From positions 243,538 through 307,537 of the forward strand of contig JACKGO010000001.1 of the NCBI GenBank assembly GCA_020631975.1: a DNA stretch of 64,000 bases, given 5' to 3'. Source of the DNA: Candidatus Nomurabacteria bacterium (GTDB lineage Bacteria; Patescibacteriota; Saccharimonadia; Saccharimonadales; CAIOMD01). The notes beneath the pieces are model-generated. The model was not told the DNA's origin, searched no databases, and saw only the letters and a list, made by a program, of their open reading frames with translations. The translations under genes and the position numbers were made by a program. Shown here one piece after another: positions 2,318 to 58,757 of the stretch (positions are counted from its first letter, which is position 1; each line of letters starts with the position of its first letter).

Positions 2318-2827
2318 TTACAAGGCAGCTTCTATAGCAGCCCATTCAGCATCTGCGTCGTCTTCTGGAATATTAACACTTATCTGATCACCAGGTTTCG
2401 CCTTAAAGTAAGTCACACTGGCAAGTAGAACACGATACATTTTTTCGCCTACTTCTACAAAGTAGTGGCCTTCTTTTTGTATAAGCATACCTACTACTTG
2501 TTTACGTGGAATGGGCCCAATCTGCTTGTACATAAACGCACCATCATCACCAATGGTAAGCTTTAAGATATCACCTTGTACGAGTTTAGACTTACTAGCA
2601 TAATTGGCTGGCACAGGGTAGGTCTTGCCATCAGAACCAACCATGTTCTGACCATCAAACACACCTTCTAGTATTTTGCCACCTATATTTTCCTTGGCAT
2701 GAGCAGTCATTTCTGGGTCTTCACCCACTAAACTCACCAATAGTTCATGGGCAGCTTGTAAATTTGTTTCTGCTTCTCTGATTAGCGCTTTCAAGCGCTT
2801 TACTTGCTTCTCTGGTAAATCGGACAT
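2318..2827 (-). CDS. hypothetical protein (169 aa)
   Basis: Intact ORF with its own terminator; no recognisable motif. Confidence 0.45.
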   Translation of the reverse strand: MSDLPEKQVKRLKALIREAETNLQAAHELLVSLVGEDPEMTAHAKENIGGKILEGVFDGQNMVGSDGKTYPVPANYASKSKLVQGDILKLTIGDDGAFMYKQIGPIPRKQVVGMLIQKEGHYFVEVGEKMYRVLLASVTYFKAKPGDQISVNIPEDDADAEWAAIEAAL

Positions 2828-3000
2828 CGCAGCTTCTCCTTTTTCTGTTTTTCTACTAAAACACCTTTTAAAGTCCTTGTCATAACCGTAGCATATAATA
2901 CGATATTACGCAATTATTATGTACCTATTCTGTGGAAAACTAACATTTTTATATATTTATATACAGCTATTAATAGCGTTGTATATAAAGTAACAAAACA

Positions 3001-4233
3001 CTACCCCAGCAGTTGCTCTACCAATTCTTGATTTACGTTGATACCAGTTTTTAAATGAATAACAGTTTTACCATGTTGCCGCTGAGCATATTGATATGCA
3101 GCTACATCAGCGATCATGCTTGCTGGCTCTTGCAACCCAAAGAATGGGTCTACACTATGGTTGGCGTACACTTCCATTAAATTCATATAGATACTATCTA
3201 GATGTCTTTTATAGCCGTTCGCTAATTGGCTATTAGTCACTAGTACTGTATTAGAAACGTATGGTAGGGCCTGTAAGCCGTGGGCTCCTATTGTTCGCAC
3301 CGCAGCCCCATCTGCGAATGCATTCACATCTCCTGCGACCGGCACTGCTTTTAGTTGATTGTGCTTTTTAAAGTATTGCCAACTTTGCACGGCACTATCA
3401 GCGCCTTCTAGCTGTGCCAATACAACTTCTGGTCTTGCGTTAGCATCTGGGTAAATTGTACGGAGTGCTTTCATAATACCTGCCAGCAAGCCACCTCCTC
3501 CAACAGGTACTACCAATATTACTTCGCTTGGGTTTATCTGCTGTTTTTGCAGCTCACGAGCGACAGCATACCCAACCATACTTTGCCCACTTACAGTTAG
3601 GTCGTTATCGTACGGATGAATAAGTGTTGCACCTTTTAAATTATCTGTACGTTGGCAAGCCGCTTCATAGGCTTCGTCGTAAGTGTTGCCATGAACGACA
3701 ATACTTACATCATCACCACCAATATTTTTAATACCCTCTAATTTTACTGGTGCGACACTAGATGGAACATATATGTCAGCGTGTACACGCCGTCCATTTC
3801 TACCGCTAAAAGAATGTGCATCGAATAATTCATTCAGGCGCCGAACTCCCATTGCTACGCCCTGTGCATGGTTCCCAACGCTCGCCGTAACTACCCCATG
3901 CTCAAGGAGCTGATGATAATCTACCGATGCAATAGCATTCCATGCGCCACGAAATTTAAATGAACCTATGGGTGAATATGTAGCTAAGTCTAGTTGCATA
4001 AGCCGGTTGTTGCCAACATACTCTTGGCGATCTGTGAGTGGTGTAAGATTACCCATATGATCTTCAGGCAACAATAAGTCCATCCGAGCAGTCAGTGGTA
4101 ACCTATCATACACTGGAGTCACATAAGGTACATATTCTGCGCTTACATCATTCATAGTATGTTTAACAGACGTGAGGTCTAAGACCCCACTTCTAAATAA
4201 GCTGTGGTCATATTCTTTGGTTGCTGTTCTCAT
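3001..4233 (-). CDS. ilvA: threonine dehydratase (PLP-dependent, fold type II; catalytic domain only, N-terminal extension)
   Basis: PLP-lysine motif SFKFRGA, VVTASVGNHAQGVA, VPVGGGGLLAGI and FADGAAVRTIG all match the IlvA/TdcB family. No C-terminal ACT domain. Strong RBS AAGGAG before the ATG. Confidence 0.75.
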   Translation of the reverse strand: MRTATKEYDHSLFRSGVLDLTSVKHTMNDVSAEYVPYVTPVYDRLPLTARMDLLLPEDHMGNLTPLTDRQEYVGNNRLMQLDLATYSPIGSFKFRGAWNAIASVDYHQLLEHGVVTASVGNHAQGVAMGVRRLNELFDAHSFSGRNGRRVHADIYVPSSVAPVKLEGIKNIGGDDVSIVVHGNTYDEAYEAACQRTDNLKGATLIHPYDNDLTVSGQSMVGYAVARELQKQQINPSEVILVVPVGGGGLLAGIMKALRTIYPDANARPEVVLAQLEGADSAVQSWQYFKKHNQLKAVPVAGDVNAFADGAAVRTIGAHGLQALPYVSNTVLVTNSQLANGYKRHLDSIYMNLMEVYANHSVDPFFGLQEPASMIADVAAYQYAQRQHGKTVIHLKTGINVNQELVEQLLG

Positions 4234-4248
4234 AGTTACTCCTTATAT

Positions 4249-4280
4249 AAAAAATCCGCTCGGTAGTTGCCGAGCGGATG
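4249..4280 (-). terminator. attenuator terminator in the threonine dehydratase leader
   Basis: Minus-strand ATCCGCTCGG-CAACTA-CCGAGCGGAT followed by TTTTTTAT, ending 8 nt before the RBS. An upstream element CACCGAGCGG can pair with its 5' arm as an antiterminator. Confidence 0.5.
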
Positions 4281-4299
4281 TCTTTTTATTGTTGCACTA

Positions 4300-4371
4300 T
4301 TATTGCATCATTAAACAGACCGCTCGGTGCGGCATAATAATGATGGCAATAATTGCGCGTATAGCTTGCAT
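4300..4371 (-). CDS. Ile-rich leader peptide MQAIRAIIAIIIMPHRAVCLMMQ (23 aa)
   Basis: Six Ile codons (ATT/ATC) within eight codons. The Ile-codon segment is complementary to the segment spanning the leader stop codon (ATTATTGC-ATCATT / AATGATGCAATAAT). Confidence 0.45.
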   Translation of the reverse strand: MQAIRAIIAIIIMPHRAVCLMMQ

Positions 4372-4380
4372 ATACTTACG

Positions 4381-4410
4381 GTTATACGCCTTATAGCAGC
4401 ATGTTGTCAA
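4381..4410 (-). promoter_or_regulatory. sigma70-like promoter for the leader and threonine dehydratase transcript
   Basis: Minus-strand TTGACA, 18-nt spacer, TATAAC; a transcript starting here would begin a few nt before the leader-peptide ATG. Confidence 0.4.
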
Positions 4411-4411
4411 C

Positions 4412-4442
4412 TAAAAAACGCTCCGTACGTAACGGAGCGCTT
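4412..4442 (-). terminator. rplL intrinsic terminator
   Basis: Minus-strand GCGCTCCGT-TACGT-ACGGAGCG followed by TTTTTTAG, about 30 nt after the rplL stop. Confidence 0.6.
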
Positions 4443-4471
4443 AGTACACCGTAAGGTGCTTAGGTAGCTAC

Positions 4472-4882
4472 TTATGCTAATTCGACAGTTCCGCCAGCTT
4501 CTTCTAGAGCTTTTTTAGCGGCTTCTGCATCTTCTTTGTTAGCTTTTTCTAGCACTGGTTTTGGTGCACCATCTACAATAGCTTTTGATTCACCAAGGCC
4601 AAGCCCGGTAATTTCTTTGACTGCTTTGATAACAGCGACTTTCTGGCTACCAGCGTCTTTAAGAACAACATCAAATTCGCTCTTTTCATCAGCTGCTGGT
4701 GCACCACCGTCAGCTGCAGGCGCTGCAGCAACTGCAACGGCTGGTGCAGCTGCACTTACGTTCCAGTATTCTTCTAGAAACGTTACTAATTTGCTAATTT
4801 CTAGGGCACTTAATTTATCTAATTCTTTGACAATGCCTGCGAACTCTTTTGGCACTGTTACTTTGTTATCTGTCTCTGACAT
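4472..4882 (-). CDS. rplL: 50S ribosomal protein L7/L12
   Basis: Ala/Pro-rich hinge and C-terminal [45 protein letters not shown]. Confidence 0.95.
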
Positions 4883-4901
4883 CGTATTATCTCCTTGTTC
4901 C

Positions 4902-5432
4902 TTAATTTATTGATTCTGCTCGGGCTGTTAAGGCATATAAAATACCCCGTTGGCTCCCTTGTAATACACGTATAAACGATGTAAGCGGAGCTGCAATTGT
5001 ACCAACTAATTGACCACGTAATTGATCTTTGCTTGGTAAGTTCGCGAGTGCTTTTACGTCATCTGCGTGTAAAAATAAACCTTCTGGTGTAATTGCTCCT
5101 ACAAACTCTAAACTTGGGTTCGTTTTTGCAAAAACATGGAGGCTCTGGGCGGGCGCTACTTCGTCTTCACTATTAAATGCATACACTAACTGCTCTACGA
5201 GCAAACCAGTATCAACATCCTTTAGTGCGTCAGTTTGCATCAGTGCTTGGCGGACTAATCTATTTTTTACTACCTTAATGACCGTCTGTGACTGTGTTGC
5301 ACTTTTTCTGAGTGCCTGCATATCTTTCACTGACAGGCCTTTGTACTTAGCGACTACTGTTAGTTTAGACGTAGCGAGTAGTTCAGCCACGTCTGCAACC
5401 ACTTGATGCTTTTGTTCTTTACTTAAAGCCAT
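4902..5432 (-). CDS. rplJ: 50S ribosomal protein L10
   Basis: [19 protein letters not shown] start with an AAGGA RBS. The listed ORF starts 34 codons earlier but lacks an RBS. Confidence 0.9.
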
Positions 5433-5677: not shown

Positions 5678-6409
5678 ATGGAATTAGGTAAGGACAGCTG
5701 GATGGATATGGCGAATCGTCTACGTAATGGCGGTCCTAGCGCAGTATTAGCGAGATTCGCTCTTATGCTGGCGGGAAATGCTGCTTTGGCGGATCTTTTA
5801 GAACATGCAGCAAATTCAGATAAAGATAGCTTGACACATATACGTAATCGTGGAGCGCTTGAAGAAGATATAAAAGAGTTACTTTTGTCTCCAGAAAGTG
5901 GAGCGCTCATTGTAATAGACCTCGTTAACTTTGGGCAGGTAAATAACCAACGTGGCCAATCAGGTGGTGATAAGTTATTGCAAATTATAGCCGAGGGGCT
6001 CACGAGAGTCACAAGTAGGCGCCGCAACGATATAATATACACACAACACTCACGTACTGAACCGAGCCAACAAGACGAAGAAGGTTACCGTGTGGGTGGG
6101 GACGAATTTGTTGCACTATTAAAAAATGGTGATTCATTAAAAAATGCCGATATTGTTGCTATCACCCATACGAAACTTCGCCAAATACTAGAAGACCCCG
6201 CAGTCACCGAATTCCTTACTAGTGAAAATGACGATCCAGATAAAGTAATATCCTTATTTGGCATACGAGCAGGCGCGTGCATAATTGATGCGAATAAACA
6301 CGCGTCTTACGCTGATGTACAAAGTGACGCAGACCCTAAATTAGGTACCGTATGTGAATATCAGCTCCGACTCGTAGATGGTACATACGAGCTAGATTGT
6401 ACAATATAG
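5678..6409 (+). CDS. GGDEF-domain diguanylate cyclase (standalone, no sensor domain)
   Basis: DSLTHIRNR (DxLTGLxNR), IVIDLVNFGQVNNQRGQSGGDKLLQ and RVGGDEFVALL with an intact GGDEF motif. Confidence 0.75.
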   Translation: MELGKDSWMDMANRLRNGGPSAVLARFALMLAGNAALADLLEHAANSDKDSLTHIRNRGALEEDIKELLLSPESGALIVIDLVNFGQVNNQRGQSGGDKLLQIIAEGLTRVTSRRRNDIIYTQHSRTEPSQQDEEGYRVGGDEFVALLKNGDSLKNADIVAITHTKLRQILEDPAVTEFLTSENDDPDKVISLFGIRAGACIIDANKHASYADVQSDADPKLGTVCEYQLRLVDGTYELDCTI

Positions 6410-7021: not shown

Positions 7022-9322
7022 CTACTTTTTGTCTAATACTTTCAACTTATATTGTGTATAGCGCTCTGCAGCAAGCCGGGTAAGTTCTGCGTCTTCGTCT
7101 TTATTTACAAAGCGCATTGCTTCTGACACCATCGGGTGTACTTCAGCAATTTTATCGTACATAATTTTTGCCAGTTTTCTATAACCTGGATGCCCTTGTG
7201 GGCTGGTACGCAGTTCTATAAAATGCATGGCTTCTCTGGCGTTCATGGTAGCCTTCCAACGCATTTTATGGCCAAATAACGTAGCATACTGTGATTCGGT
7301 GATTTTTTTGGCTGCTACCAAGTTACTATGTAGTTCTAGGCTTGTGTCAAATGAATCTAGGTAGGTTTCTGTCATGCCTGCCTTTTCTATAAGTTCGGGT
7401 ATATCATAGCCATACCGCGGAGTTAACGGTTGCCAGGCAAGATCACTTACCATCCTATGGCGCTGTAAATCTCTAAATATGCCGTAATCACATACGATAT
7501 CCCAACTATAAGTAATGCGTTCGAGCGCACGGCCAGGTTTGTGCCGGCGGTTAAGTCGCTCGCCAATATAACTACTAAATAGCTTAACCTTATGCTTGTA
7601 TGGTAGATCAGCAATTGCTGCATTGGCTTCTTGCTCGCTCATTGTAGTGTGTTCGTAGACCATGTGCGGTACGACGTCTAGTTCATTCTTAGGATAGTAA
7701 TGGGTGAGGGTTACTGCTGATTGATCTGAGCTGTAAGTTTCTGGTAAAAGTTTTTGAACAAGGGCATGCATTGCCTGTCTAGTGTCTGCCCGGTAGGCTA
7801 CAGTTGCGCCCCCACGCTCTGGCTTATCTGCCCGTTCTAAAAAGGCTGGTATGATTTTGCGGGCTTCTGTAAGCAATGCTTTACCGCATAAACGGGCTTC
7901 TTTTGAACCATCAGCCATCAGTCTCATTATGAGACTTTCTATTGCTTGGCCCGATGCGTATATTCCAACGGTACTTTTCGTAGCAACTGGCAGCATATAA
8001 CGGGCGGCGTCACAGGCTTGGGCACGAATAGCTGATCGCCATGCGCCATCACGCTCTTTTTGGGGGGTAGAGTCTGTTTTGTGCAAATAGTCAGTAATGC
8101 CCCGAACAGCCTTGGAGTAATTGTCAAATAATTGATCCATCGTTTTTATATATTGTTTTTTTGTAGCACTGCTGAGCGTTGTAGGCACGTAGTATTTATA
8201 ACGACCGCTCGCATCTTTTTGGTCATAATAGATATACCGAGTTGATTGCTCTAAATAAGAAGCTAAACGCCCCCATTCAATTTGCTTGGTAAGTAAATTA
8301 GATGCGTTTTCTACTACCATGTGTATACCTACAAGCTGCTGGACAGAATCGTCTCCGTACGCTGTAACGACTCGTTGTATTAAGCCTTCGTCTTTACCTG
8401 CTTTATCTACGAATTCATCTAGCAAGGTTACGCGCATGTCATCACCACGGCGGCTCAGGCGTGCCATCGCGGCAGCTACAGTTACTTGGTCTAGCGTGTC
8501 GTTAAACGCATATACGTTTGATTCGTTGTTAGTGACAATGCTAGATAATTTTTGGCGTCCTGCATCTGTAATTGTTATTGGGTTTGCTGTTGTATCTAAA
8601 TACGCTGCAGTTTGCGCATTAGGTTCATGACTACTTGGTGCACGTAAGATTGGTGGCGGGCTACTCATATGTACACTTGGTTGTGTTTTGGCTGGCTGTT
8701 TATTAAATAGTGCAGCGACATATTCCCATACATATCTAAATACTTTTTCAGACGATTCGTTTGCAAATACAACTGGGTAGCCTCTTTGTTTGGCTTCTAC
8801 TAGATAGCCTGCCCTTACTCTATCTAGAAAGCCAAGGTCTAGGTTGTCAAACCGTTCACCATGTTTGCGACGCTTCATGCGCTTACCTAGTTCATCAACA
8901 GGAGCATCAAGAATTACTGTAAGATCTGGTTCCATGTCTCCGACAGCAAAATTTATAATACTGGTTATCGTGTCATAGTCTGGCACATCACCCCGGCCGT
9001 AATATTGTATCGCTAACGTGGTGAGGTAGTTTCTGTCTACTAAACAAATAACACCTTGTTCGCGGGCTTGTTTAATAACTTCTAGCGACAACGCACGAGC
9101 TGCGTTATAAAGTAGCACCTCTGCTCTGGTATTAAGTGGATAGTTTGGATCTTGTGTAATCTGGCGAATAGCACGGGCTGATAAATGGCTTTGACTATCT
9201 GGTTCTCTGAACAAGCGGACTGCGTAACCATATTTTTGTAGCTGACGGGCGATTAGTTCTATTTGTGTAGTTTTACCAACTCCTTCTGGGCCTTCAAGAA
9301 CAATATAATAGCCTTTACTCAT
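7022..9322 (-). CDS. tmk-thyX: thymidylate kinase fused to tandem flavin-dependent thymidylate synthase (ThyX-ThyX)
   Basis: N-terminal GPEGVGKTTQ, FREPDS and VDRNYL are Tmk motifs. The C-terminal ~550 aa carry two ThyX-like repeats. The first has ARYMLP...SGQAIESLIMRLMAD and a degenerate WGRLASY in place of RHR. The second has QRHRMVSDL...Y, YATLFG and NAREAMHFIELR. Confidence 0.8.
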   Translation of the reverse strand: MSKGYYIVLEGPEGVGKTTQIELIARQLQKYGYAVRLFREPDSQSHLSARAIRQITQDPNYPLNTRAEVLLYNAARALSLEVIKQAREQGVICLVDRNYLTTLAIQYYGRGDVPDYDTITSIINFAVGDMEPDLTVILDAPVDELGKRMKRRKHGERFDNLDLGFLDRVRAGYLVEAKQRGYPVVFANESSEKVFRYVWEYVAALFNKQPAKTQPSVHMSSPPPILRAPSSHEPNAQTAAYLDTTANPITITDAGRQKLSSIVTNNESNVYAFNDTLDQVTVAAAMARLSRRGDDMRVTLLDEFVDKAGKDEGLIQRVVTAYGDDSVQQLVGIHMVVENASNLLTKQIEWGRLASYLEQSTRYIYYDQKDASGRYKYYVPTTLSSATKKQYIKTMDQLFDNYSKAVRGITDYLHKTDSTPQKERDGAWRSAIRAQACDAARYMLPVATKSTVGIYASGQAIESLIMRLMADGSKEARLCGKALLTEARKIIPAFLERADKPERGGATVAYRADTRQAMHALVQKLLPETYSSDQSAVTLTHYYPKNELDVVPHMVYEHTTMSEQEANAAIADLPYKHKVKLFSSYIGERLNRRHKPGRALERITYSWDIVCDYGIFRDLQRHRMVSDLAWQPLTPRYGYDIPELIEKAGMTETYLDSFDTSLELHSNLVAAKKITESQYATLFGHKMRWKATMNAREAMHFIELRTSPQGHPGYRKLAKIMYDKIAEVHPMVSEAMRFVNKDEDAELTRLAAERYTQYKLKVLDKK

Positions 9323-12434: not shown

Positions 12435-12980
12435 TTAGACTTTTTTGACCTGGAGGCTGTCTAGTTCTACTGGTGTTTCGCGACCAAACATATTTACAAG
12501 TACCTTAATTTTACCTTTTTGAGTATCTATTTCGCTAATACTACCGTCAAAGCCTTTAAATGGCCCATCAACAATGTTTACTACTTCGCCAACAGAGTAA
12601 TCTATGCGGTGCTTTGGCTGGTCTACACCCATACGTTTTTTAATCTTATCCATTTCGTCTTCGCTCACTGGTGTCGGTTCGGTACCACTGCCGACAAAAC
12701 CAGTCACGTTTGGCGTATTACGCACAACGTACCATGCATCATCAGACAACTTCATTTCTACAAGCACATAGCCCTGAAAAATGCGTTTTTCTACAACTTT
12801 ACGCTTGCCGTTTTTAATTTCTATTTGCTTCTCTTTAGGCACTAATACTTGGAATATCTTATCGGCCATTTCTAGCGTTTCTGCACGCTGCCGAATACTA
12901 ACGGCAACCTTTTCTTCGTAGCCACTGTATGTATGAATCGCATACCACTGGCGACTAGAATCGTACCTATTTTTACTCAT
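12435..12980 (-). CDS. nusG: transcription antiterminator NusG
   Basis: WYAIHTYSGYEEKV NGN domain and C-terminal KOW (VGEVVNIVDGPFKGFDGSISEID). Confidence 0.9.
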   Translation of the reverse strand: MSKNRYDSSRQWYAIHTYSGYEEKVAVSIRQRAETLEMADKIFQVLVPKEKQIEIKNGKRKVVEKRIFQGYVLVEMKLSDDAWYVVRNTPNVTGFVGSGTEPTPVSEDEMDKIKKRMGVDQPKHRIDYSVGEVVNIVDGPFKGFDGSISEIDTQKGKIKVLVNMFGRETPVELDSLQVKKV

Positions 12981-13387
12981 CGTAAAATTATCTCCTTTAC
13001 TACTTTGCTAAATACCAGATCAAGCACTTGCACAAATATGGCAAACACAATCGCAAATGCTATAACTGCCCCTGTTTTACTGGCTGCTTCTCGCTTTGTT
13101 GGCCAAGTAACTTGTTTAAGCTCTCTCCACGATTCTGTAATAAACTTCGGTATAAATCGTACACGCTTCCCTAGTACCCGACCCACTTTGTTATCGGGTG
13201 TTTTAATCGGATGATATTCTTTTGCACCAATACGACGCAATTTGCTCAAAGGGCGATGAATCGTTGCCTTAACCTTTGCAGATTTTTTAGGCTTACTTTT
13301 TTTAATTGATCCCTTTTCTGCCCGCTCACGTACCGTTTCTGGCATTTTTTTCTTACGTGGCGCCTTAGCTTGCTTTTCGGTTGCCAT
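12977..13387 (-). CDS. secE: preprotein translocase SecE with a basic N-terminal extension
   Basis: C-terminal ELKQVTWPTKREAASKTGAVIAFAIVFAIFVQVLD. Confidence 0.8.
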   Translation of the reverse strand: MATEKQAKAPRKKKMPETVRERAEKGSIKKSKPKKSAKVKATIHRPLSKLRRIGAKEYHPIKTPDNKVGRVLGKRVRFIPKFITESWRELKQVTWPTKREAASKTGAVIAFAIVFAIFVQVLDLVFSKVVKEIILR

Positions 13388-23387: not shown

Positions 23388-24599
23388 ATGAAGGTACTTA
23401 TGCTTGGGTGGGAACTGCCACCGCATAATAGCGGAGGGCTTGGTGTCGCGTGTTATCATATGTGCAAAGCACTGTCTCATAAAGGGGTAGATATTGAATT
23501 TATCGTGCCGTACACTGCCCCGCACGATGATATACATTTTATGAAGGTAACCCCGGCTACGCCTTTTAATGTCAAGGAAATCCAAAAAGGTGGCATGGCC
23601 TATGACAGTTTTAGCTATATTTATAACGATAAATCTATAGAGCATATTTCTATCCATGAGCAAACAGAACGTTACGTCAAATCTGTCGAGGGTATTACTA
23701 CATTAGGTGAATTTGACATTATTCATGCGCATGATTGGCTTACTTTTCGGGCTGCGCTCCGTGCTAAAGAAATAAGTGGCAAGCCGCTAATCACTCATGT
23801 ACACGCGACCGAGTTTGACCGCGCTGGTGGTAAATCAGGCAATCCGCTTGTACATGAAATAGAATACATGGGGCTTATGTTGGCAGATAAAATCATTGCC
23901 GTCAGCCAACATACAAAAAATGTAATTACCAAAGAATACGACATTCCACAAGACAAAATAGATGTTGTACATAACAGTATAGACACTGCTATATACCAAG
24001 ACCTAGACCCCCATAACGCCTACCGTTATTTAGAAAAAATGAAGTCCCATGGCTACAGGGTAGTGGCGAATGTTGGCAGACTTACCGTACAGAAAGGTTT
24101 ATATAACCTACTGCTCGCAGCCAAAGATGTCGTTTCGCGCTCACCTAAGACCATTTTTTTGATTGTTGGGTCTGGTGAACAGTATCAAGAATTATTACAG
24201 CTTTCGGCCGATTTAGGCATTGCTAAAAACGTCGTGTTTACTGATTTTCAAAGAGGTAAAAATTTACGTGACGCTTTTGCAATTGCCGATTTATTTGTAA
24301 TGCCAAGTGTTTCTGAGCCATTTGGACTCACACCACTAGAAGCAATAGGCTATGGGACGCCCGCACTTGTTAGCAAGCAAAGTGGTGTTGCCGAGGTTAT
24401 TACCAACTGCTTAAAAGTAGATTTTTGGGATGTCCAAGAAATGGCCAACCAAATACACGCCGTTGTATCACACGATAGTTTACGTGACGAACTTCACACC
24501 CAAAGTTTTGCAGAATTCATTAAGCTATCGTGGGACGCTACAGCACATAAGCTTGTAGGCGCATATACGCAGCACGTTCAACTTGTGGGGGCTAAGTAA
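23388..24599 (+). CDS. GT4 retaining glycosyltransferase (alpha-glucan / glycogen-synthase-like)
   Basis: MKVLMLGWELPPHNSGGLG N-terminus and C-terminal EPFGLTPLEAIGYG (EX7E). Confidence 0.75.
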   Translation: MKVLMLGWELPPHNSGGLGVACYHMCKALSHKGVDIEFIVPYTAPHDDIHFMKVTPATPFNVKEIQKGGMAYDSFSYIYNDKSIEHISIHEQTERYVKSVEGITTLGEFDIIHAHDWLTFRAALRAKEISGKPLITHVHATEFDRAGGKSGNPLVHEIEYMGLMLADKIIAVSQHTKNVITKEYDIPQDKIDVVHNSIDTAIYQDLDPHNAYRYLEKMKSHGYRVVANVGRLTVQKGLYNLLLAAKDVVSRSPKTIFLIVGSGEQYQELLQLSADLGIAKNVVFTDFQRGKNLRDAFAIADLFVMPSVSEPFGLTPLEAIGYGTPALVSKQSGVAEVITNCLKVDFWDVQEMANQIHAVVSHDSLRDELHTQSFAEFIKLSWDATAHKLVGAYTQHVQLVGAK

Positions 24600-25813
24600 T
24601 GAAGCAAGCTATTAGCCTTTACTTACACGTTCATCAGCCCTACCGTATTAGACATTACACTATATTTGATGCCGGAAGCGACCATCAATACTTTAATGAC
24701 GCAAGCCCGCACGCACTAACCAACAACCGGTTTATTGTTGAAAAAGTGGCCGAAAAATCATACCGACCAATGAACGCGGTGCTCAAAGAATTATTAGACA
24801 CAATAGAAGACTTTAAATTTAGTTTGTCTATACCTGGTATGCTCATTGATCAACTGGCCGAGTGGGCTCCAGACGTACTATATTCTTTCCAGGAACTCGT
24901 AAAAAGTGGCCGAGTAGAAATTGTGGCAGAAACCTACCACCACAGTTTGGCCTTCTTTTATTCGCGTGCAGAATTTGAAGCCCAAGTACTTATGCACCGC
25001 CAAAAAGTCCAAGAAGTGTTTGGTGTAACCCCTACGGCATTCCGAAACACCGAACTTAGTTACAATAACGATTTAGCTTATTGGGCAGATAAAGCGGGTT
25101 ATAAAGCCATAATTACAGAAGGTTGGGACCCTATTTTAGGATGGCGTAGCCCTAATTTTGTGTACCGTCCAGCTTACACAGAAAATATTAAATTACTACT
25201 TAAGAATTATAAGCTAAGTGACGATATTGCGTTTCGGTTTGGTAACCAAGAATGGGAAGAATGGCCCCTCAGTGCCGAAAAGTATGTATCGTGGCTTGGT
25301 GCAGCGATGGATAATGCCCAAGTATTTAATTTGTTTATGGATTATGAAACGTTTGGCGAGCACCAATGGGCGAGCACAGGTATATTTGATTTTATGAAAG
25401 CCATGCCACATATATGGAAAAATAGCCGTGATGATCGCACGTTTATGACTATTAGCGAATCTGTCTATAGCTTTGAAGCCAACGATTATGTTGATATACC
25501 GCAAACAATTACATGGGCCGACACTGAACGAGATTTAACTGCATGGCTTGGTAATAGTATGCAGCACGAAGCAATACATGCCATATATCAGCTCGAAGAT
25601 AAAGTACTACGTTGTGGTGACGCCGATATCGTGGCAGACTGGCGTAAACTACAAACCAGTGATCATTTTTACTATATGTGTACCAAATGGTTTAAAGACG
25701 GTGATGTACACGCATATTTTAGCCCTTATACCAGCCCGTACGAAGCGTTTACGAACTTTATGAATGCGTGGCACGACTTGCAGTTCCGCCTTGCAGAGAA
25801 AGGGTTTGTTTAA
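24599..25813 (+). CDS. glycoside hydrolase family 57 (alpha-amylase / glucanotransferase-like)
   Basis: N-terminal LYLHVHQPYR GH57 signature; start overlaps the GT4 stop. Confidence 0.8.
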   Translation: MKQAISLYLHVHQPYRIRHYTIFDAGSDHQYFNDASPHALTNNRFIVEKVAEKSYRPMNAVLKELLDTIEDFKFSLSIPGMLIDQLAEWAPDVLYSFQELVKSGRVEIVAETYHHSLAFFYSRAEFEAQVLMHRQKVQEVFGVTPTAFRNTELSYNNDLAYWADKAGYKAIITEGWDPILGWRSPNFVYRPAYTENIKLLLKNYKLSDDIAFRFGNQEWEEWPLSAEKYVSWLGAAMDNAQVFNLFMDYETFGEHQWASTGIFDFMKAMPHIWKNSRDDRTFMTISESVYSFEANDYVDIPQTITWADTERDLTAWLGNSMQHEAIHAIYQLEDKVLRCGDADIVADWRKLQTSDHFYYMCTKWFKDGDVHAYFSPYTSPYEAFTNFMNAWHDLQFRLAEKGFV

Positions 25814-25830
25814 GCGTGGCTAGACCAGTC

Positions 25831-27750
25831 ATGCTGAGTAATGGCCAGCTAATGGTTGGCTTGAATGAAGCCGGCTTAGTCCATGATTTTTATTACCCAT
25901 ATGTGGGGTTAGATAATCTTACAACCGCCAGAAGTGTGCACCATAAAATTGGTGTATGGGTAGATGGTACGTTTTCTTGGGTAGATGATGATTCCTGGCA
26001 GGTAGATATTCAGCTAGAAACAGATGCGCTTATTGGTAGAGTAGAACTATCACATGAAAGTCTTGGCATAAAAATCAGCACAAAAGATTTTGTAGACACG
26101 CAAACAAACGCCTTTATACGACGCATATCAGTAACCAATGAAAGTAATACTCGCAGAGATATTCGTCTGTTTATGCATCAGGTTTTTGAAATATCTAAAT
26201 CTGGCCGTGCCGACACAGCTTTTTATGAACCTGACGGTAATTACATTTTAGATTATAAAGGCCGTTGTGCCTTGCTTATATGTGGGCAAACAAAAGACGG
26301 TCACTCTCTAGACCAATTTGCTGTTGGTAATTACGGCATAGAAGGCAAAGCTGGTACTTTTATTGATGCAGCTGATGGTGAATTGTCTGGCAACGCCGTA
26401 GAACATGGTGGCGTAGATTCTGTCATACGGTTTTCTATACCGCTAGATCCACATACAACGGCTGAAGTTGACTATTGGATTATTGCGAGTAGCTCACAGT
26501 ATGAGTCACAAGCTATCCACGCAGATTTTTTGCGACACGGTATAGATAAGCGTGAACAGATTGCCCGAAATACATGGGCAAAGTGGTTAAAACAGGGTGA
26601 CAGCGCACTAGAAACAATTGCGCCTGAGTATCAAGATCATGTAAAAAAATCATTGCTTGTCATTAAAGCACATATAGACAAACGAGGTGGTATTTTAGCG
26701 AGTGGTGATAGTAGCATATTTAATTATGGCCGAGATTACTACTGTTATGTATGGCCCCGCGACGGGGCATATGCTATATGGCCACTTATAAGAATGGGTT
26801 ATTACAAAGAAGCGATTAAATTCTTTGAATTCTGTCGTGATACGATGCATAAAGACGGCTATTTGCTCCATAAGTATCAGCCAGATAGAGCAATTGGGAG
26901 TACCTGGCACCCACTGGTGCACAATAGTCGTTCGGAGCTGGCAATACAAGAAGACGAAACTGCAATAATCCTTATAATGTTGGGTGAATATTATGATTAT
27001 AGTAAGGATGCCGAATTTACCGAATCGCTGTATGCCACATTAATCCAGCCGGCTGCAATGTTTATTAGTAAATTCATAGAAGAAGACACAAACTTGCCGC
27101 ATGCGAGCTACGATTTATGGGAAGAGAAATTTTTAACAACAACCTATACCACTGCTACTGTTATACGCGCATTACGGCGAGCAAGTAGCTTTGCTGACCA
27201 GTTTGGATACCCAGACGACGCCGTTCAGTGGATGCAGGTTGCAGATAGTATAGAATCATCACTCCCCTTGCTGTACGACCCTGATAGGCAAGCGTATCGT
27301 AAAGGACTTCTGCGCCTGCCAGATGGTAATCTACAGTTTGATAACACGTTGGATATGTCCACGTTATACGGACTTACCATGTTTACAAAAGTAAAATTAA
27401 ACGATCCAACAGTTGTTCACACGGTAGAAGCTATAGAAAGTAACCTCGTTAACAAAACTATCGGTGGAGTCGTGCGATACGAAAACGATAACTACATGAA
27501 AACATCAGAAGATGCGCAACCGAATCCATGGTTTGTGTGCACATTATGGCTTGCGCAGTATTATGTACAGAGGCAACAGCCAGATAAAGCCAAAGAACTC
27601 ATAGATTGGTCACTGTCACATAGCCTAGATAGTGGCATACTAAGTGAACAAGTACACCCAGAAACCGGCTATGCGGTGGGCGTTGCTCCGTTAGTATGGA
27701 GCCACACTGAACTTATTAATACGATTCTTGATATTAGCGGAACACAGTAA
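25831..27750 (+). CDS. glycoside hydrolase family 15 (glucoamylase / glucodextranase / trehalase-like)
   Basis: LSNGQLMVGLNEAG N-domain and YVWPRDGAYAI (WxRD) in an (alpha/alpha)6 catalytic domain. Start placed at the ATG after the GH57 stop; the listed ORF starts 21 codons earlier and overlaps GH57. Confidence 0.75.
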   Translation: MLSNGQLMVGLNEAGLVHDFYYPYVGLDNLTTARSVHHKIGVWVDGTFSWVDDDSWQVDIQLETDALIGRVELSHESLGIKISTKDFVDTQTNAFIRRISVTNESNTRRDIRLFMHQVFEISKSGRADTAFYEPDGNYILDYKGRCALLICGQTKDGHSLDQFAVGNYGIEGKAGTFIDAADGELSGNAVEHGGVDSVIRFSIPLDPHTTAEVDYWIIASSSQYESQAIHADFLRHGIDKREQIARNTWAKWLKQGDSALETIAPEYQDHVKKSLLVIKAHIDKRGGILASGDSSIFNYGRDYYCYVWPRDGAYAIWPLIRMGYYKEAIKFFEFCRDTMHKDGYLLHKYQPDRAIGSTWHPLVHNSRSELAIQEDETAIILIMLGEYYDYSKDAEFTESLYATLIQPAAMFISKFIEEDTNLPHASYDLWEEKFLTTTYTTATVIRALRRASSFADQFGYPDDAVQWMQVADSIESSLPLLYDPDRQAYRKGLLRLPDGNLQFDNTLDMSTLYGLTMFTKVKLNDPTVVHTVEAIESNLVNKTIGGVVRYENDNYMKTSEDAQPNPWFVCTLWLAQYYVQRQQPDKAKELIDWSLSHSLDSGILSEQVHPETGYAVGVAPLVWSHTELINTILDISGTQ

Positions 27751-57551: not shown

Positions 57552-58757
57552 TTATTTACGTAGCGGTAGATCTAGAAGCTTACATACGGCTACGTCAAAC
57601 GCTGCTTGCTTAAGTGTTGTGTTGGTGAGCTTCGCATAATCTAAGACATCTACTGTGGCTTGTGTCATCGTAGCGTCTAGCTTTGTATTAACATCTTCAT
57701 GGGTCCAACGTTTCTTTTGCATGTTTTGTAACCACTCATAGTAGCTTACTACCACCCCTCCAGCGTTTGCGAGTATATCAGGTACGACTTCAGTTCCTTG
57801 GTGGAAAAGTATATCTGTAGCTTTATCTGTAACGGGACCATTGGCTAATTCTATGATAAACCGAGCTCTAACAACTGATGCGTTGGCTGGGGTGATAACG
57901 TTTCCTAAAGCCGCCAAAACAAGCATCGTGTACTCTCCACGTATTAGCTGGTTACTGCTAAGTTCTACAGTATTTGGAAAACCTGCTATCTTTTGGTTGT
58001 GTTTTTTGTATGCAACTAAGGATTGTGCATCAATATCTTTGCTAGAAATCGCTGTTTTTGAGTCAGATGCAGCTTGTAGTTGCCAGCGAGGTTGCAGGGT
58101 GCTTGCTTCTGTGGCAAAAAAACTTCCGACATTGCCGAGACCTTGCAGACCATAGCTCACATCTGTAATATTATTAGATTGCATAATTGTTTGAGCCACA
58201 ATAAACCCGCCTCTACCGGTAGCAGCTTCTCTGCCATTGCTCCCACCCTTTTTTAGTGACTTTCCCGTAAAACTAGCTCCTGAAGTGTCACCAGTTATTT
58301 TGTGATATTCATCTGTCATCCAGTCAATAATTTGTGAATTAGTTTGTACATCTGGTGCAGGTATGTCTTGTTGCGGGCCAATATACGGGCTAAGATACGC
58401 TACGTATTTTCGGGATAGTTCTTCTAGTTCATGTGCGGTAAGTTGTTTTGGGTCCACAGCTATGCCGCCCTTACCACCCCCGAGCGGTAAGTCTAATAAT
58501 GCTGTCTTAAGACTCATTAAGATACTAAGTGCTACTACTTCGCTGCGGGTAACGTCTGGGTGAAAACGTATTCCACCTTTATAAGGACCCCTATCATTAT
58601 TGTGCTGTGACCTATAGGCTTGAAAACACTTACCATTGTTGAGCGTGATGGTAAATTCATGAACCTTATTGGGAGTCAGTAGTTTGTTTAGTTGTTGGTC
58701 GCTTAGACCTAAACGTTTTGCTGATTCTTGTAAAAAATATGTTACCGTTGTGTGCAT
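57552..58757 (-). CDS. gdh: Glu/Leu/Phe/Val-family dehydrogenase (glutamate dehydrogenase)
   Basis: KGGIRFHPDVTRSEV...LPLGGGKGG catalytic lysine region. Confidence 0.9.
   Translation of the reverse strand: MHTTVTYFLQESAKRLGLSDQQLNKLLTPNKVHEFTITLNNGKCFQAYRSQHNNDRGPYKGGIRFHPDVTRSEVVALSILMSLKTALLDLPLGGGKGGIAVDPKQLTAHELEELSRKYVAYLSPYIGPQQDIPAPDVQTNSQIIDWMTDEYHKITGDTSGASFTGKSLKKGGSNGREAATGRGGFIVAQTIMQSNNITDVSYGLQGLGNVGSFFATEASTLQPRWQLQAASDSKTAISSKDIDAQSLVAYKKHNQKIAGFPNTVELSSNQLIRGEYTMLVLAALGNVITPANASVVRARFIIELANGPVTDKATDILFHQGTEVVPDILANAGGVVVSYYEWLQNMQKKRWTHEDVNTKLDATMTQATVDVLDYAKLTNTTLKQAAFDVAVCKLLDLPLRK

Follow-up and report, generated by a model that had tools for sequence, protein, structure and literature searches.

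A putative isoleucine-codon leader-peptide attenuator in front of an IlvA-like gene in Saccharibacteria

Could a bacterium with a reduced genome tune a single amino-acid enzyme to its isoleucine supply through a translated leader? The question is raised by a locus in a 64,000-nucleotide stretch of contig JACKGO010000001.1 (Saccharimonadales), hereafter the window, in which a short isoleucine-rich open reading frame (ORF) precedes the gene for a pyridoxal phosphate (PLP)-dependent, threonine dehydratase-like enzyme. Bacteria of the Candidate Phyla Radiation (CPR, Patescibacteria) are viewed as minimal in biosynthesis, and little gene regulation is known from them. We consider it very likely, from comparative sequence analysis and folding models, that the locus is a ribosome-mediated leader-peptide transcription attenuator reporting the supply of charged tRNA-Ile. 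Directly observed are the sequence elements, their conservation, the alternative folds as predicted, and a strict association with the enzyme gene. A leader-peptide attenuator has apparently not been reported from CPR bacteria before; in the literature we found no description of attenuation in Saccharibacteria or Patescibacteria, nor of this element.

The leader and the gene that follows it comprise these features.

4410-4405, minus strand: -35-like hexamer TTGACA, read in the sequence.
4386-4381, minus strand: -10-like hexamer TATAAC, 18-nt spacer from the -35, ending 9 nt before the leader ATG.
ATG at 4371, TAA at 4302-4300, minus strand: putative leader ORF MQAIRAIIAIIIMPHRAVCLMMQ, 23 codons plus stop.
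4362-4336, minus strand: putative regulatory Ile codons 4, 7, 8, 10, 11 and 12 (ATA ATT ATT ATC ATT ATT).
4358-4294, minus strand: P1, predicted anti-antiterminator or pause hairpin of 19 bp, formed by the Ile-codon strand at 4358-4338 and the stop-codon strand at 4313-4294.
4333-4319, minus strand: predicted CCGC:GCGG mini-hairpin capping P1.
4327-4320, minus strand: region 2, CCGAGCGG, which covers the codons His-Arg-Ala-Val and would supply the antiterminator with its 5' strand.
4279-4254, minus strand: predicted terminator hairpin ATCCGCTCGG-caacta-CCGAGCGGAT, 10 bp with a 6-nt loop, -18.6 kcal/mol.
4277-4270, minus strand: region 3, the terminator 5' arm CCGCTCGG (CCGCUCGG), common to the antiterminator.
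4253-4249, minus strand: terminator U tract (UUUUUU with the last U of the stem counted).
4244-4239, minus strand: Shine-Dalgarno (SD) sequence AAGGAG of the PLP-enzyme gene, read in the sequence.
3001-4233, minus strand: PLP-enzyme gene, 410 residues, ATG at 4233.

Isoleucine occupies 6 of 9 positions over codons 4-12 of the leader ORF and 5 of 6 over codons 7-12. An earlier note on this DNA had described 23 codons with six isoleucines in eight; the length and the richness in isoleucine hold, and the count gives way to the figures above. The promoter that it placed just after the rplL terminator, TTGACA and TATAAC at an 18-nt spacing, is there on the minus strand, as are the terminator hairpin and U tract ahead of the ribosome binding site, although the stem ends 9 rather than 8 nt before the SD. 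Among all ORFs of 8-45 codons that start with ATG in the 64-kb window, it is the only one with 5 or more isoleucines in a stretch of 8 codons; isoleucine makes up 7.1% of the residues in long ORFs. Judged by its codons, the locus would thus have the short ORF rich in the regulating amino acid that marks leader-peptide attenuators.

Seven distinct orthologous loci (the window and six others) share the layout, with enzymes that are 40-56% identical; on the orthologue contigs, rplJ-rplL is followed after ~230 nt by the PLP gene. The device, including the isoleucine-rich ORF that the note had expected at such loci, is found in all seven intact orthologues having upstream sequence. The six further leader peptides read MSFVSMIISIIIIPQRADCLVKQ, MSYVRIIMSIIIPHRADCLVMP, MNKLMQNIAIIIPHRAGSLTLQ, MQTVCMIIAIIIIPHRAECLI, MSYVSIIISIIIIPHRADCLTMQ and MQTLRMIIAIIIIPHRAECLI. 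Orthologous leader ORFs are 21-23 codons (66-72 nt) long, differ in length by multiples of three alone, and encode peptides with the consensus ..II.III(I)P(H/Q)RA.(C/S)L... Each has 4-7 Ile codons, in a run that abuts the segment CCGCA-CG[AG]GCGG on its 5' side. At the two codons that precede the last one of the run, isoleucine is present in 7/7 leaders, and three codon columns swap ATT for ATC with the Ile residue unchanged. Searching metagenomes for the leader motif ATTATNCCGCANCGAGCGG returned 71 stretches, among them one additional true leader (L114, identical to that of the window), the remainder being chance matches. When genome contigs were scanned with the protein, all loci returned were distant ones of IlvA type (identity of 39% or less), none of them of this clade and none with an orthologous leader, and a second protein search with a clade profile found no further members.

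We compared the folds of the seven leaders. The 143-nt leader of the window has a minimum free energy (MFE) of -51.6 kcal/mol (z = -6.1), which 0 of 200 shuffles equal, and its MFE structure consists of P1 and the terminator. P1 of this leader accounts for -29.2 kcal/mol (z = -5.3); across the seven leaders the z-scores of P1 lie between -1.7 and -5.4, six of them at or under -3.1. Folded singly, every leader has P1 plus the terminator as its MFE structure, in line with the pairing of Ile-codon and stop-codon segments that was proposed at the outset. The terminator follows the consensus CCGCUCG(G)-loop-C(C)G[AG]GCGG plus U tract, just 5' of the SD; it is kept in 7/7 leaders, where changes at the ends of its stem compensate one another, and its tail is U-rich in six of the seven orthologues. 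Region 2 repeats the core of the terminator 3' arm exactly, with CG[AG]GCGG in all seven leaders.

Conservation of these pairings was assessed on a MAFFT alignment of the seven leaders that had not been fitted to any structure and has a mean column identity of 75%. In the structure that would switch the gene OFF, 93% of the cells are paired and 6 pairs are changed on both sides; none of 500 shuffles attains the observed percentage paired, number of double-changed pairs or covariation score. Once the register is slid, only 34-51% are paired. Compensatory pairs in P1 fall at alignment columns 30-63 and 33-60. Several compensatory changes are synonymous ATT/ATC swaps of Ile codons that are matched in the P1 3' strand, so that coding and pairing are both kept. 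For the antiterminator, CCGAGCGG:CCGCUCGG, 98% of the cells are paired over the seven leaders versus 25-39% in slid registers, and one locus, L086, alters all three partners (U/A/U; leader UCGAGCGG, 5' arm CCGCUCGA, 3' arm UCGAGCGG). As isolated elements, the antiterminators have predicted energies of -18 to -24 kcal/mol and the terminators of -15 to -21 kcal/mol, which makes the antiterminator thermodynamically competitive, as anticipated.

We modeled a stalled ribosome by masking the nucleotides up to 12 nt past the A-site Ile codon, in transcripts cut before region 4. Under this mask the antiterminator becomes the MFE structure in 7/7 leaders, and this holds for stalls at every Ile codon except the last one or two. 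In the cut transcript of the window without a ribosome, P1 forms and region 3 stays free. The folding check put forward in the note, for mutually exclusive terminator and antiterminator structures, is thus borne out in the model. Compared with leader-peptide attenuators in general, the locus would have the terminator between leader ORF and gene with no intervening promoter, a mutually exclusive antiterminator that is predicted to form under a stalled ribosome, and a predicted 1:2 anti-antiterminator hairpin that contains the regulatory codons. The 9 nt between the terminator stem and the SD leave the PLP-enzyme gene no room for its own promoter. The terminator must then be conditional, because a constitutive one would silence a gene that is evidently under purifying selection.

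These findings suggest the following switch. The promoter right after the rplL terminator would start the mRNA at or near the AUG of the 23-codon leader ORF. With isoleucine plentiful, or with no translation, a ribosome would reach the leader stop and leave, or would never translate the leader; the Ile-codon strand could then pair with the stop-codon strand (P1 with its CCGC:GCGG cap) and sequester region 2, CCGAGCGG. Region 3, CCGCUCGG, would pair with region 4, the second CCGAGCGG, and the hairpin with its U tract would terminate transcription 9 nt before the SD. When charged tRNA-Ile is scarce, the ribosome would stall at Ile codons 7-12 and cover the P1 5' strand and the CCGC; the free region 2 would pair with region 3 once that is made, the terminator would be blocked, and RNA polymerase would enter the gene. 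Transcription start, stalling, termination efficiency, enzyme substrate and physiological role are all inferred here. A conserved attenuator of this kind implies that transcription and translation are functionally coupled, that intrinsic terminators work and that the charging of tRNA-Ile is sensed directly, and it offers a testable cis-regulatory element of ~140 nt for a lineage nearly devoid of genetic tools.

How would the leader be transcribed and translated? Upstream of its promoter lies a ribosomal protein operon.

5534-4902, minus strand: rplJ.
4882-4472, minus strand: rplL (Pfam L7/L12).
4442-4416, minus strand: intrinsic terminator of the rplJ-rplL operon, 11-bp stem and U tract.

A hairpin equivalent to the rplL terminator is present 3' of rplL in all orthologous loci, and from its sequence this terminator is predicted to isolate the leader promoter from transcription coming from upstream. 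The loci share a promoter of the form TTGAC[AG], a spacer of 17-18 nt and a TA-rich -10; TTGACA or TTGACG is kept at the -35 position in all six loci with upstream sequence there. Our promoter scan of the window did not list the TTGACA/TATAAC pair, because it demands T as the last base of the -10. The -10 hexamers without a final T occur in the window (4381-4386) and in L081, L084, L087, L159 and L163, and read TATAAC, TATATC, TATACC, TATAAG and TATATA; a conserved GCG precedes those that lack it. These odd hexamers reflect either a lineage-specific promoter recognition or a true -10 that is defined otherwise. The leader ATG lies 7-9 nt from the -10 in 7/7 loci, and an SD sequence precedes it in 0/7. 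Given this spacing and the absent SD, the leader ORF is probably leaderless, or else preceded by a 5' untranslated region of at most 4 nt.

We compared the leader to known attenuators. Its closest analogue appears to be the ilvBNC attenuator of Corynebacterium glutamicum, whose leader peptide IlvL (MTIIRLVVVTARRLP) is encoded by a transcript that starts one nucleotide from the start codon and has no ribosome binding site (PMC11857589). Both combine a leader ORF without a ribosome binding site, anti-antiterminator, antiterminator and terminator hairpins, and control of a branched-chain enzyme (PMC11857589). The sequences are dissimilar, however, and the C. glutamicum leader is longer (292 nt versus ~140 nt), has mixed Ile/Val/Leu codons where the saccharibacterial leader has Ile only, and regulates AHAS and IlvC in a complete pathway rather than a lone IlvA-like gene in a reduced genome. 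The putative leaderless start of the saccharibacterial ORF also derives from the -10 spacing, unlike the mapped start in C. glutamicum. The E. coli ilvGMEDA (ilvL), thr, leu, his and trp leaders similarly use 1:2, 2:3 and 3:4 pairing, a run of cognate codons and an intrinsic terminator; the enterobacterial leaders have an SD, which the leader from this different phylum (CPR/Patescibacteria) lacks.

Which enzyme would such a device control? By exact-sequence matches, the gene and its neighbors encode proteins of Candidatus Saccharibacteria or Saccharimonadales metagenome-assembled genomes, the gene itself being annotated as "pyridoxal-phosphate dependent enzyme" (HPD98867.1, MCA9345017.1, MCB9817157.1), in agreement with the CPR-like genome suspected in the note. 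The protein has a single PALP domain (PF00291, 110.5 bits versus a cutoff of 35), with residues 63-403 of the 410 taken up by the catalytic domain. The note had proposed a threonine dehydratase-like enzyme without an ACT domain, and this stands: the catalytic domain is IlvA-like, the Pfam search did not find the ACT-like regulatory domain PF00585, and the C-terminal domain is absent in the seven aligned clade members. Without an allosteric Ile/Val-binding domain, any feedback of isoleucine on this enzyme would have to act on expression.

In NCBIfam searches the protein falls below the cutoffs of its best matches, the IlvA models NF006390 (146 bits versus 421) and TIGR01124 (127.5 versus 411) and of the TdcB model NF006389 (92.3 versus 453). 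A PDB sequence search ranks IlvA-type deaminases (E 1e-26 to 2e-21) ahead of TdcB (1.6e-14) and serine racemases. The AlphaFold model has a pLDDT of 83.6, and its best PDB fold matches are IlvA catalytic domains (E 2e-24; TdcB 5e-22). Invariant across 24 aligned sequences, IlvA proteins among them, are K93 (SFKFRGA), S118-x-G120-N121-H122 and G245-L249 (GGGGL), and by these features the protein belongs to the threonine dehydratase/serine racemase branch of the fold-type II PLP enzymes. With IlvA (PDB 1tdj, 8y1j, 8zkv; NF006390, TIGR01124) it shares the catalytic domain and motifs; unlike IlvA, to which it is ~30% identical, it lacks PF00585 and carries the extras of its clade, a ~60-residue N-terminal extension (residues 1-36 are modeled at low confidence) and two insertions. 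With TdcB (PDB 2gn0; NF006389) it shares the restriction to a catalytic domain and a similar fold match; the sequence scores are lower than for IlvA, and the tdc operons respond to anaerobiosis and catabolite signals and are not known to be attenuated at Ile codons.

The clade is very small: of 5.8 billion clusters at 90% identity, it takes up nine. Beyond it, E-values jump from 1e-91 to 1e-44, and the next matches are ordinary two-domain IlvA proteins with the regulatory domain. By sequence and model, the enzyme resembles a threonine/serine ammonia-lyase reduced to its catalytic domain and nearest to those of IlvA, from whose neighborhood it appears to descend. We disfavor a racemase or epimerase function: at the position of Ser-84 in human serine racemase, which we take to be the re-face catalytic serine, the clade has Val or Ala, by hand comparison with an alignment that contains no serine racemase.

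Several observations speak against an attenuator that serves isoleucine supply. The final T of the -10 hexamer is missing in five of the seven loci, and the terminator of L159 has a poor U tract. The antiterminator is near-invariant, with the event in L086 as its lone compensatory change, and 71 of 500 shuffles match its score, so that it is backed by conservation and not by covariation statistics. A second antiterminator helix, UGUUU:AAACA, looked compensatory by eye, and we rejected it as no better than shuffled A-rich sequence in six of the seven leaders. The Rfam models of the threonine and leucine leaders match far below threshold (Thr_leader RF00506, 21.6 versus 55 bits; Leu_leader RF00512, 21.0 versus 50).

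A mechanistic difficulty lies at the leader stop codon. In five of the seven leaders, region 2 sits 17 nt ahead of the stop and is left uncovered by a ribosome placed there; at equilibrium these leaders still fold into the antiterminator. In trp leaders the stop-codon ribosome masks region 2; here this happens in only two of the seven, those with shorter ORFs. The OFF decision would thus depend on kinetics, and termination at isoleucine sufficiency would have to rely on release of the ribosome and on P1, or the CCGC:GCGG mini-hairpin, refolding quickly enough to precede region 3, which emerges 22-33 nt later.

The physiology is a further difficulty. The 64-kb window contains no ilv or leu genes, and a preprint on wastewater Saccharimonadia (Ca. 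Lutisaccharimonas) describes tdcB/K01754 as genus-enriched and reads it as catabolic (bioRxiv 10.64898/2026.09.16.751625). The same preprint reports incomplete amino-acid pathways, and ilv genes and isoleucine go unmentioned in it. The window and the preprint together leave the benefit of isoleucine-controlled expression unexplained. A candidate for a Leu/Val/Ile dehydrogenase in the window, which might have connected 2-oxo acids with branched-chain amino acids, is the 401-residue ELFV dehydrogenase at 57552-58757 (minus strand); it was rejected, because it scores as a glutamate dehydrogenase, with archaeal/halobacterial glutamate dehydrogenase models as its best matches (345 bits versus a cutoff of 620).

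These last points feed the strongest rival explanation, in which the attenuator is real and the enzyme is a catabolic serine/threonine dehydratase that yields pyruvate or 2-oxobutanoate for carbon and energy, the Ile codons of an auxotroph serving as a proxy for general amino-acid starvation or a failing host supply rather than for end-product feedback on an isoleucine pathway. We regard it as a serious possibility, at somewhat less than an even chance. Besides the lack of ilvBNCDE and leu genes in the window and the catabolic annotation in the preprint, it is favored by the absence of the allosteric domain, as in TdcB, and by TdcB structures that match nearly as well as those of IlvA. However, the regulatory codons are those of isoleucine alone, the end product of the pathway opened by IlvA-type enzymes, the bit scores and PDB sequence matches favor IlvA over TdcB, and the nearest outgroup proteins all have the IlvA regulatory domain.

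The exclusive use of Ile codons together with the affinity to IlvA argues for a role in isoleucine supply, in which feedback at the RNA level may have replaced the lost allosteric domain. If the attenuator is granted, we hold biosynthetic and starvation or catabolic roles to be roughly comparable in weight. A bolder scenario, which we offer tentatively and think rather unlikely as a whole, is that an Ile-auxotrophic epibiont without the remainder of the branched-chain pathway keeps a mobile cassette of a leaderless isoleucine attenuator and a domain-stripped threonine deaminase that empty tRNA-Ile switches on. Its 2-oxobutanoate would not become isoleucine within the cell; either the host would complete and return it, the two partners dividing the pathway, or the attenuator would be a starvation sensor that triggers serine/threonine catabolism. 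A CPR bacterium would then use translation-coupled RNA sensing to gauge the supply from its host. For the "tdcB" genes enriched in wastewater Saccharimonadia, the leader makes expression appear linked to isoleucine supply and not simply to catabolism.

We next consider whether the leader RNA could be a ligand-, tRNA- or protein-binding switch (a riboswitch, a T-box-like element or an RNA-binding-protein attenuator) with an untranslated ORF. The three-hairpin architecture by itself fits factor-dependent attenuation too, and covariation in the antiterminator is scant. We searched positions 2800-5200 against Rfam at E <= 10 and the whole window at the gathering threshold. At gathering, the window yields tRNAs only, and no T-box or riboswitch match appears in the searched interval even at E <= 10; the sub-threshold threonine and leucine leader models align weakly, full-length, to exactly this leader interval. 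We accordingly rejected membership in a known RNA family. At ~140 nt the leader has too little length to be a T-box, and the fixed distance of the ATG from the -10, the 3-nt indels, the conserved stop and the synonymous Ile swaps favor translation, which leaves a factor-dependent switch very improbable. We give scarcely any credence to the short ORF as a functional small hydrophobic peptide (membrane- or toxin-like) followed by a constitutive terminator, with the likeness to an attenuator incidental: the peptide is hydrophobic and its C-terminal P-H-R-A-x-C-L is conserved as amino acids, but the hydrophobic stretch of ~8-10 residues is nearly pure Ile with no mix of Leu, Val, Phe and Ala, the PHRA codons repeat the terminator 3' arm nucleotide for nucleotide in all seven leaders and change along with it in L086, the promoterless downstream gene would be shut off by a constitutive terminator, and the ORF is never seen without the PLP gene.

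The isoleucine attenuator and its gene appear to travel together. Six contigs of close relatives (L164-L169) have the order rplJ-rplL-hyp169-dnaX and lack the PLP gene; their 169-residue neighbor falls in the same 90%-identity cluster as that of the window, and its upstream region directly adjoins rplL. No leader remnant was seen in the two intergenic regions that we read, those of L164 (e.g. L164:3771-4001) and L168, compared with 2828-4415 in the window. Judging by these loci, promoter, leader and enzyme behave as one accessory cassette. From the sequences, it would have been either inserted between the rplL terminator and the upstream region of the neighbor or cleanly lost there. The 169-residue downstream gene was rejected as a functional partner, as the same synteny occurs in relatives without the PLP gene.

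Two apparent counter-examples without a leader were likewise set aside. P0010 (L161) lies in a chimeric or unrelated GC-rich context, and P0008 (L162) is a shortened copy in decay, from which the catalytic Lys is missing. P0008 (L162:373-1242) keeps residues 175-409 (57% identity); in place of the N-terminal half with the Lys it has 51 residues of unrelated sequence, and the ORF upstream of it is a different one. On a 617-kb Saccharimonadales contig, the enzyme gene is annotated as fragments of 157 and 196 residues. By sequence, the enzyme gene seems to be in the course of loss in some lineages. The contig of L160 (P0006, 43% identical) begins 18 nt before the gene and shows a terminator tail (L160:1-40) with a different 3' arm, AGCGGACGG, followed by U6. 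With the cassette present, absent or decayed among close relatives, the lineage provides a natural experiment on the amino-acid functions that epibionts keep.

The gene content of the window is otherwise typical of Saccharibacteria, with ribosomal operons, nucleotide salvage and synthesis, and glycogen-type enzymes. At 5678-6409 (plus strand), a GGDEF (diguanylate cyclase-like) protein adjoins rplJ on the opposite strand, and L086 also has a GGDEF gene by rplJ; it represents an unexpected signaling capacity in a reduced genome. The 766-residue protein encoded at 7022-9322 (minus strand) fuses a thymidylate kinase (residues 9-195) to ThyX, the latter recognized in two matched stretches (the best at 278-492), and has relatives with a 596-residue form that matches the kinase family only. 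Ribosomal protein L1 (10163-11215, minus strand) carries an N-terminal extension of ~150 residues without a Pfam match (L1 domain at 152-341 of 350), and SecE (12977-13387) has ~80 additional N-terminal residues. An alpha-glucan/glycogen cluster at 23388-27750 (plus strand) encodes GT4/GT5 glycogen-synthase-like, GH57 and GH15 proteins, and fits the storage-polymer metabolism described for the wastewater Saccharimonadia of Ca. Lutisaccharimonas (bioRxiv 10.64898/2026.09.16.751625).

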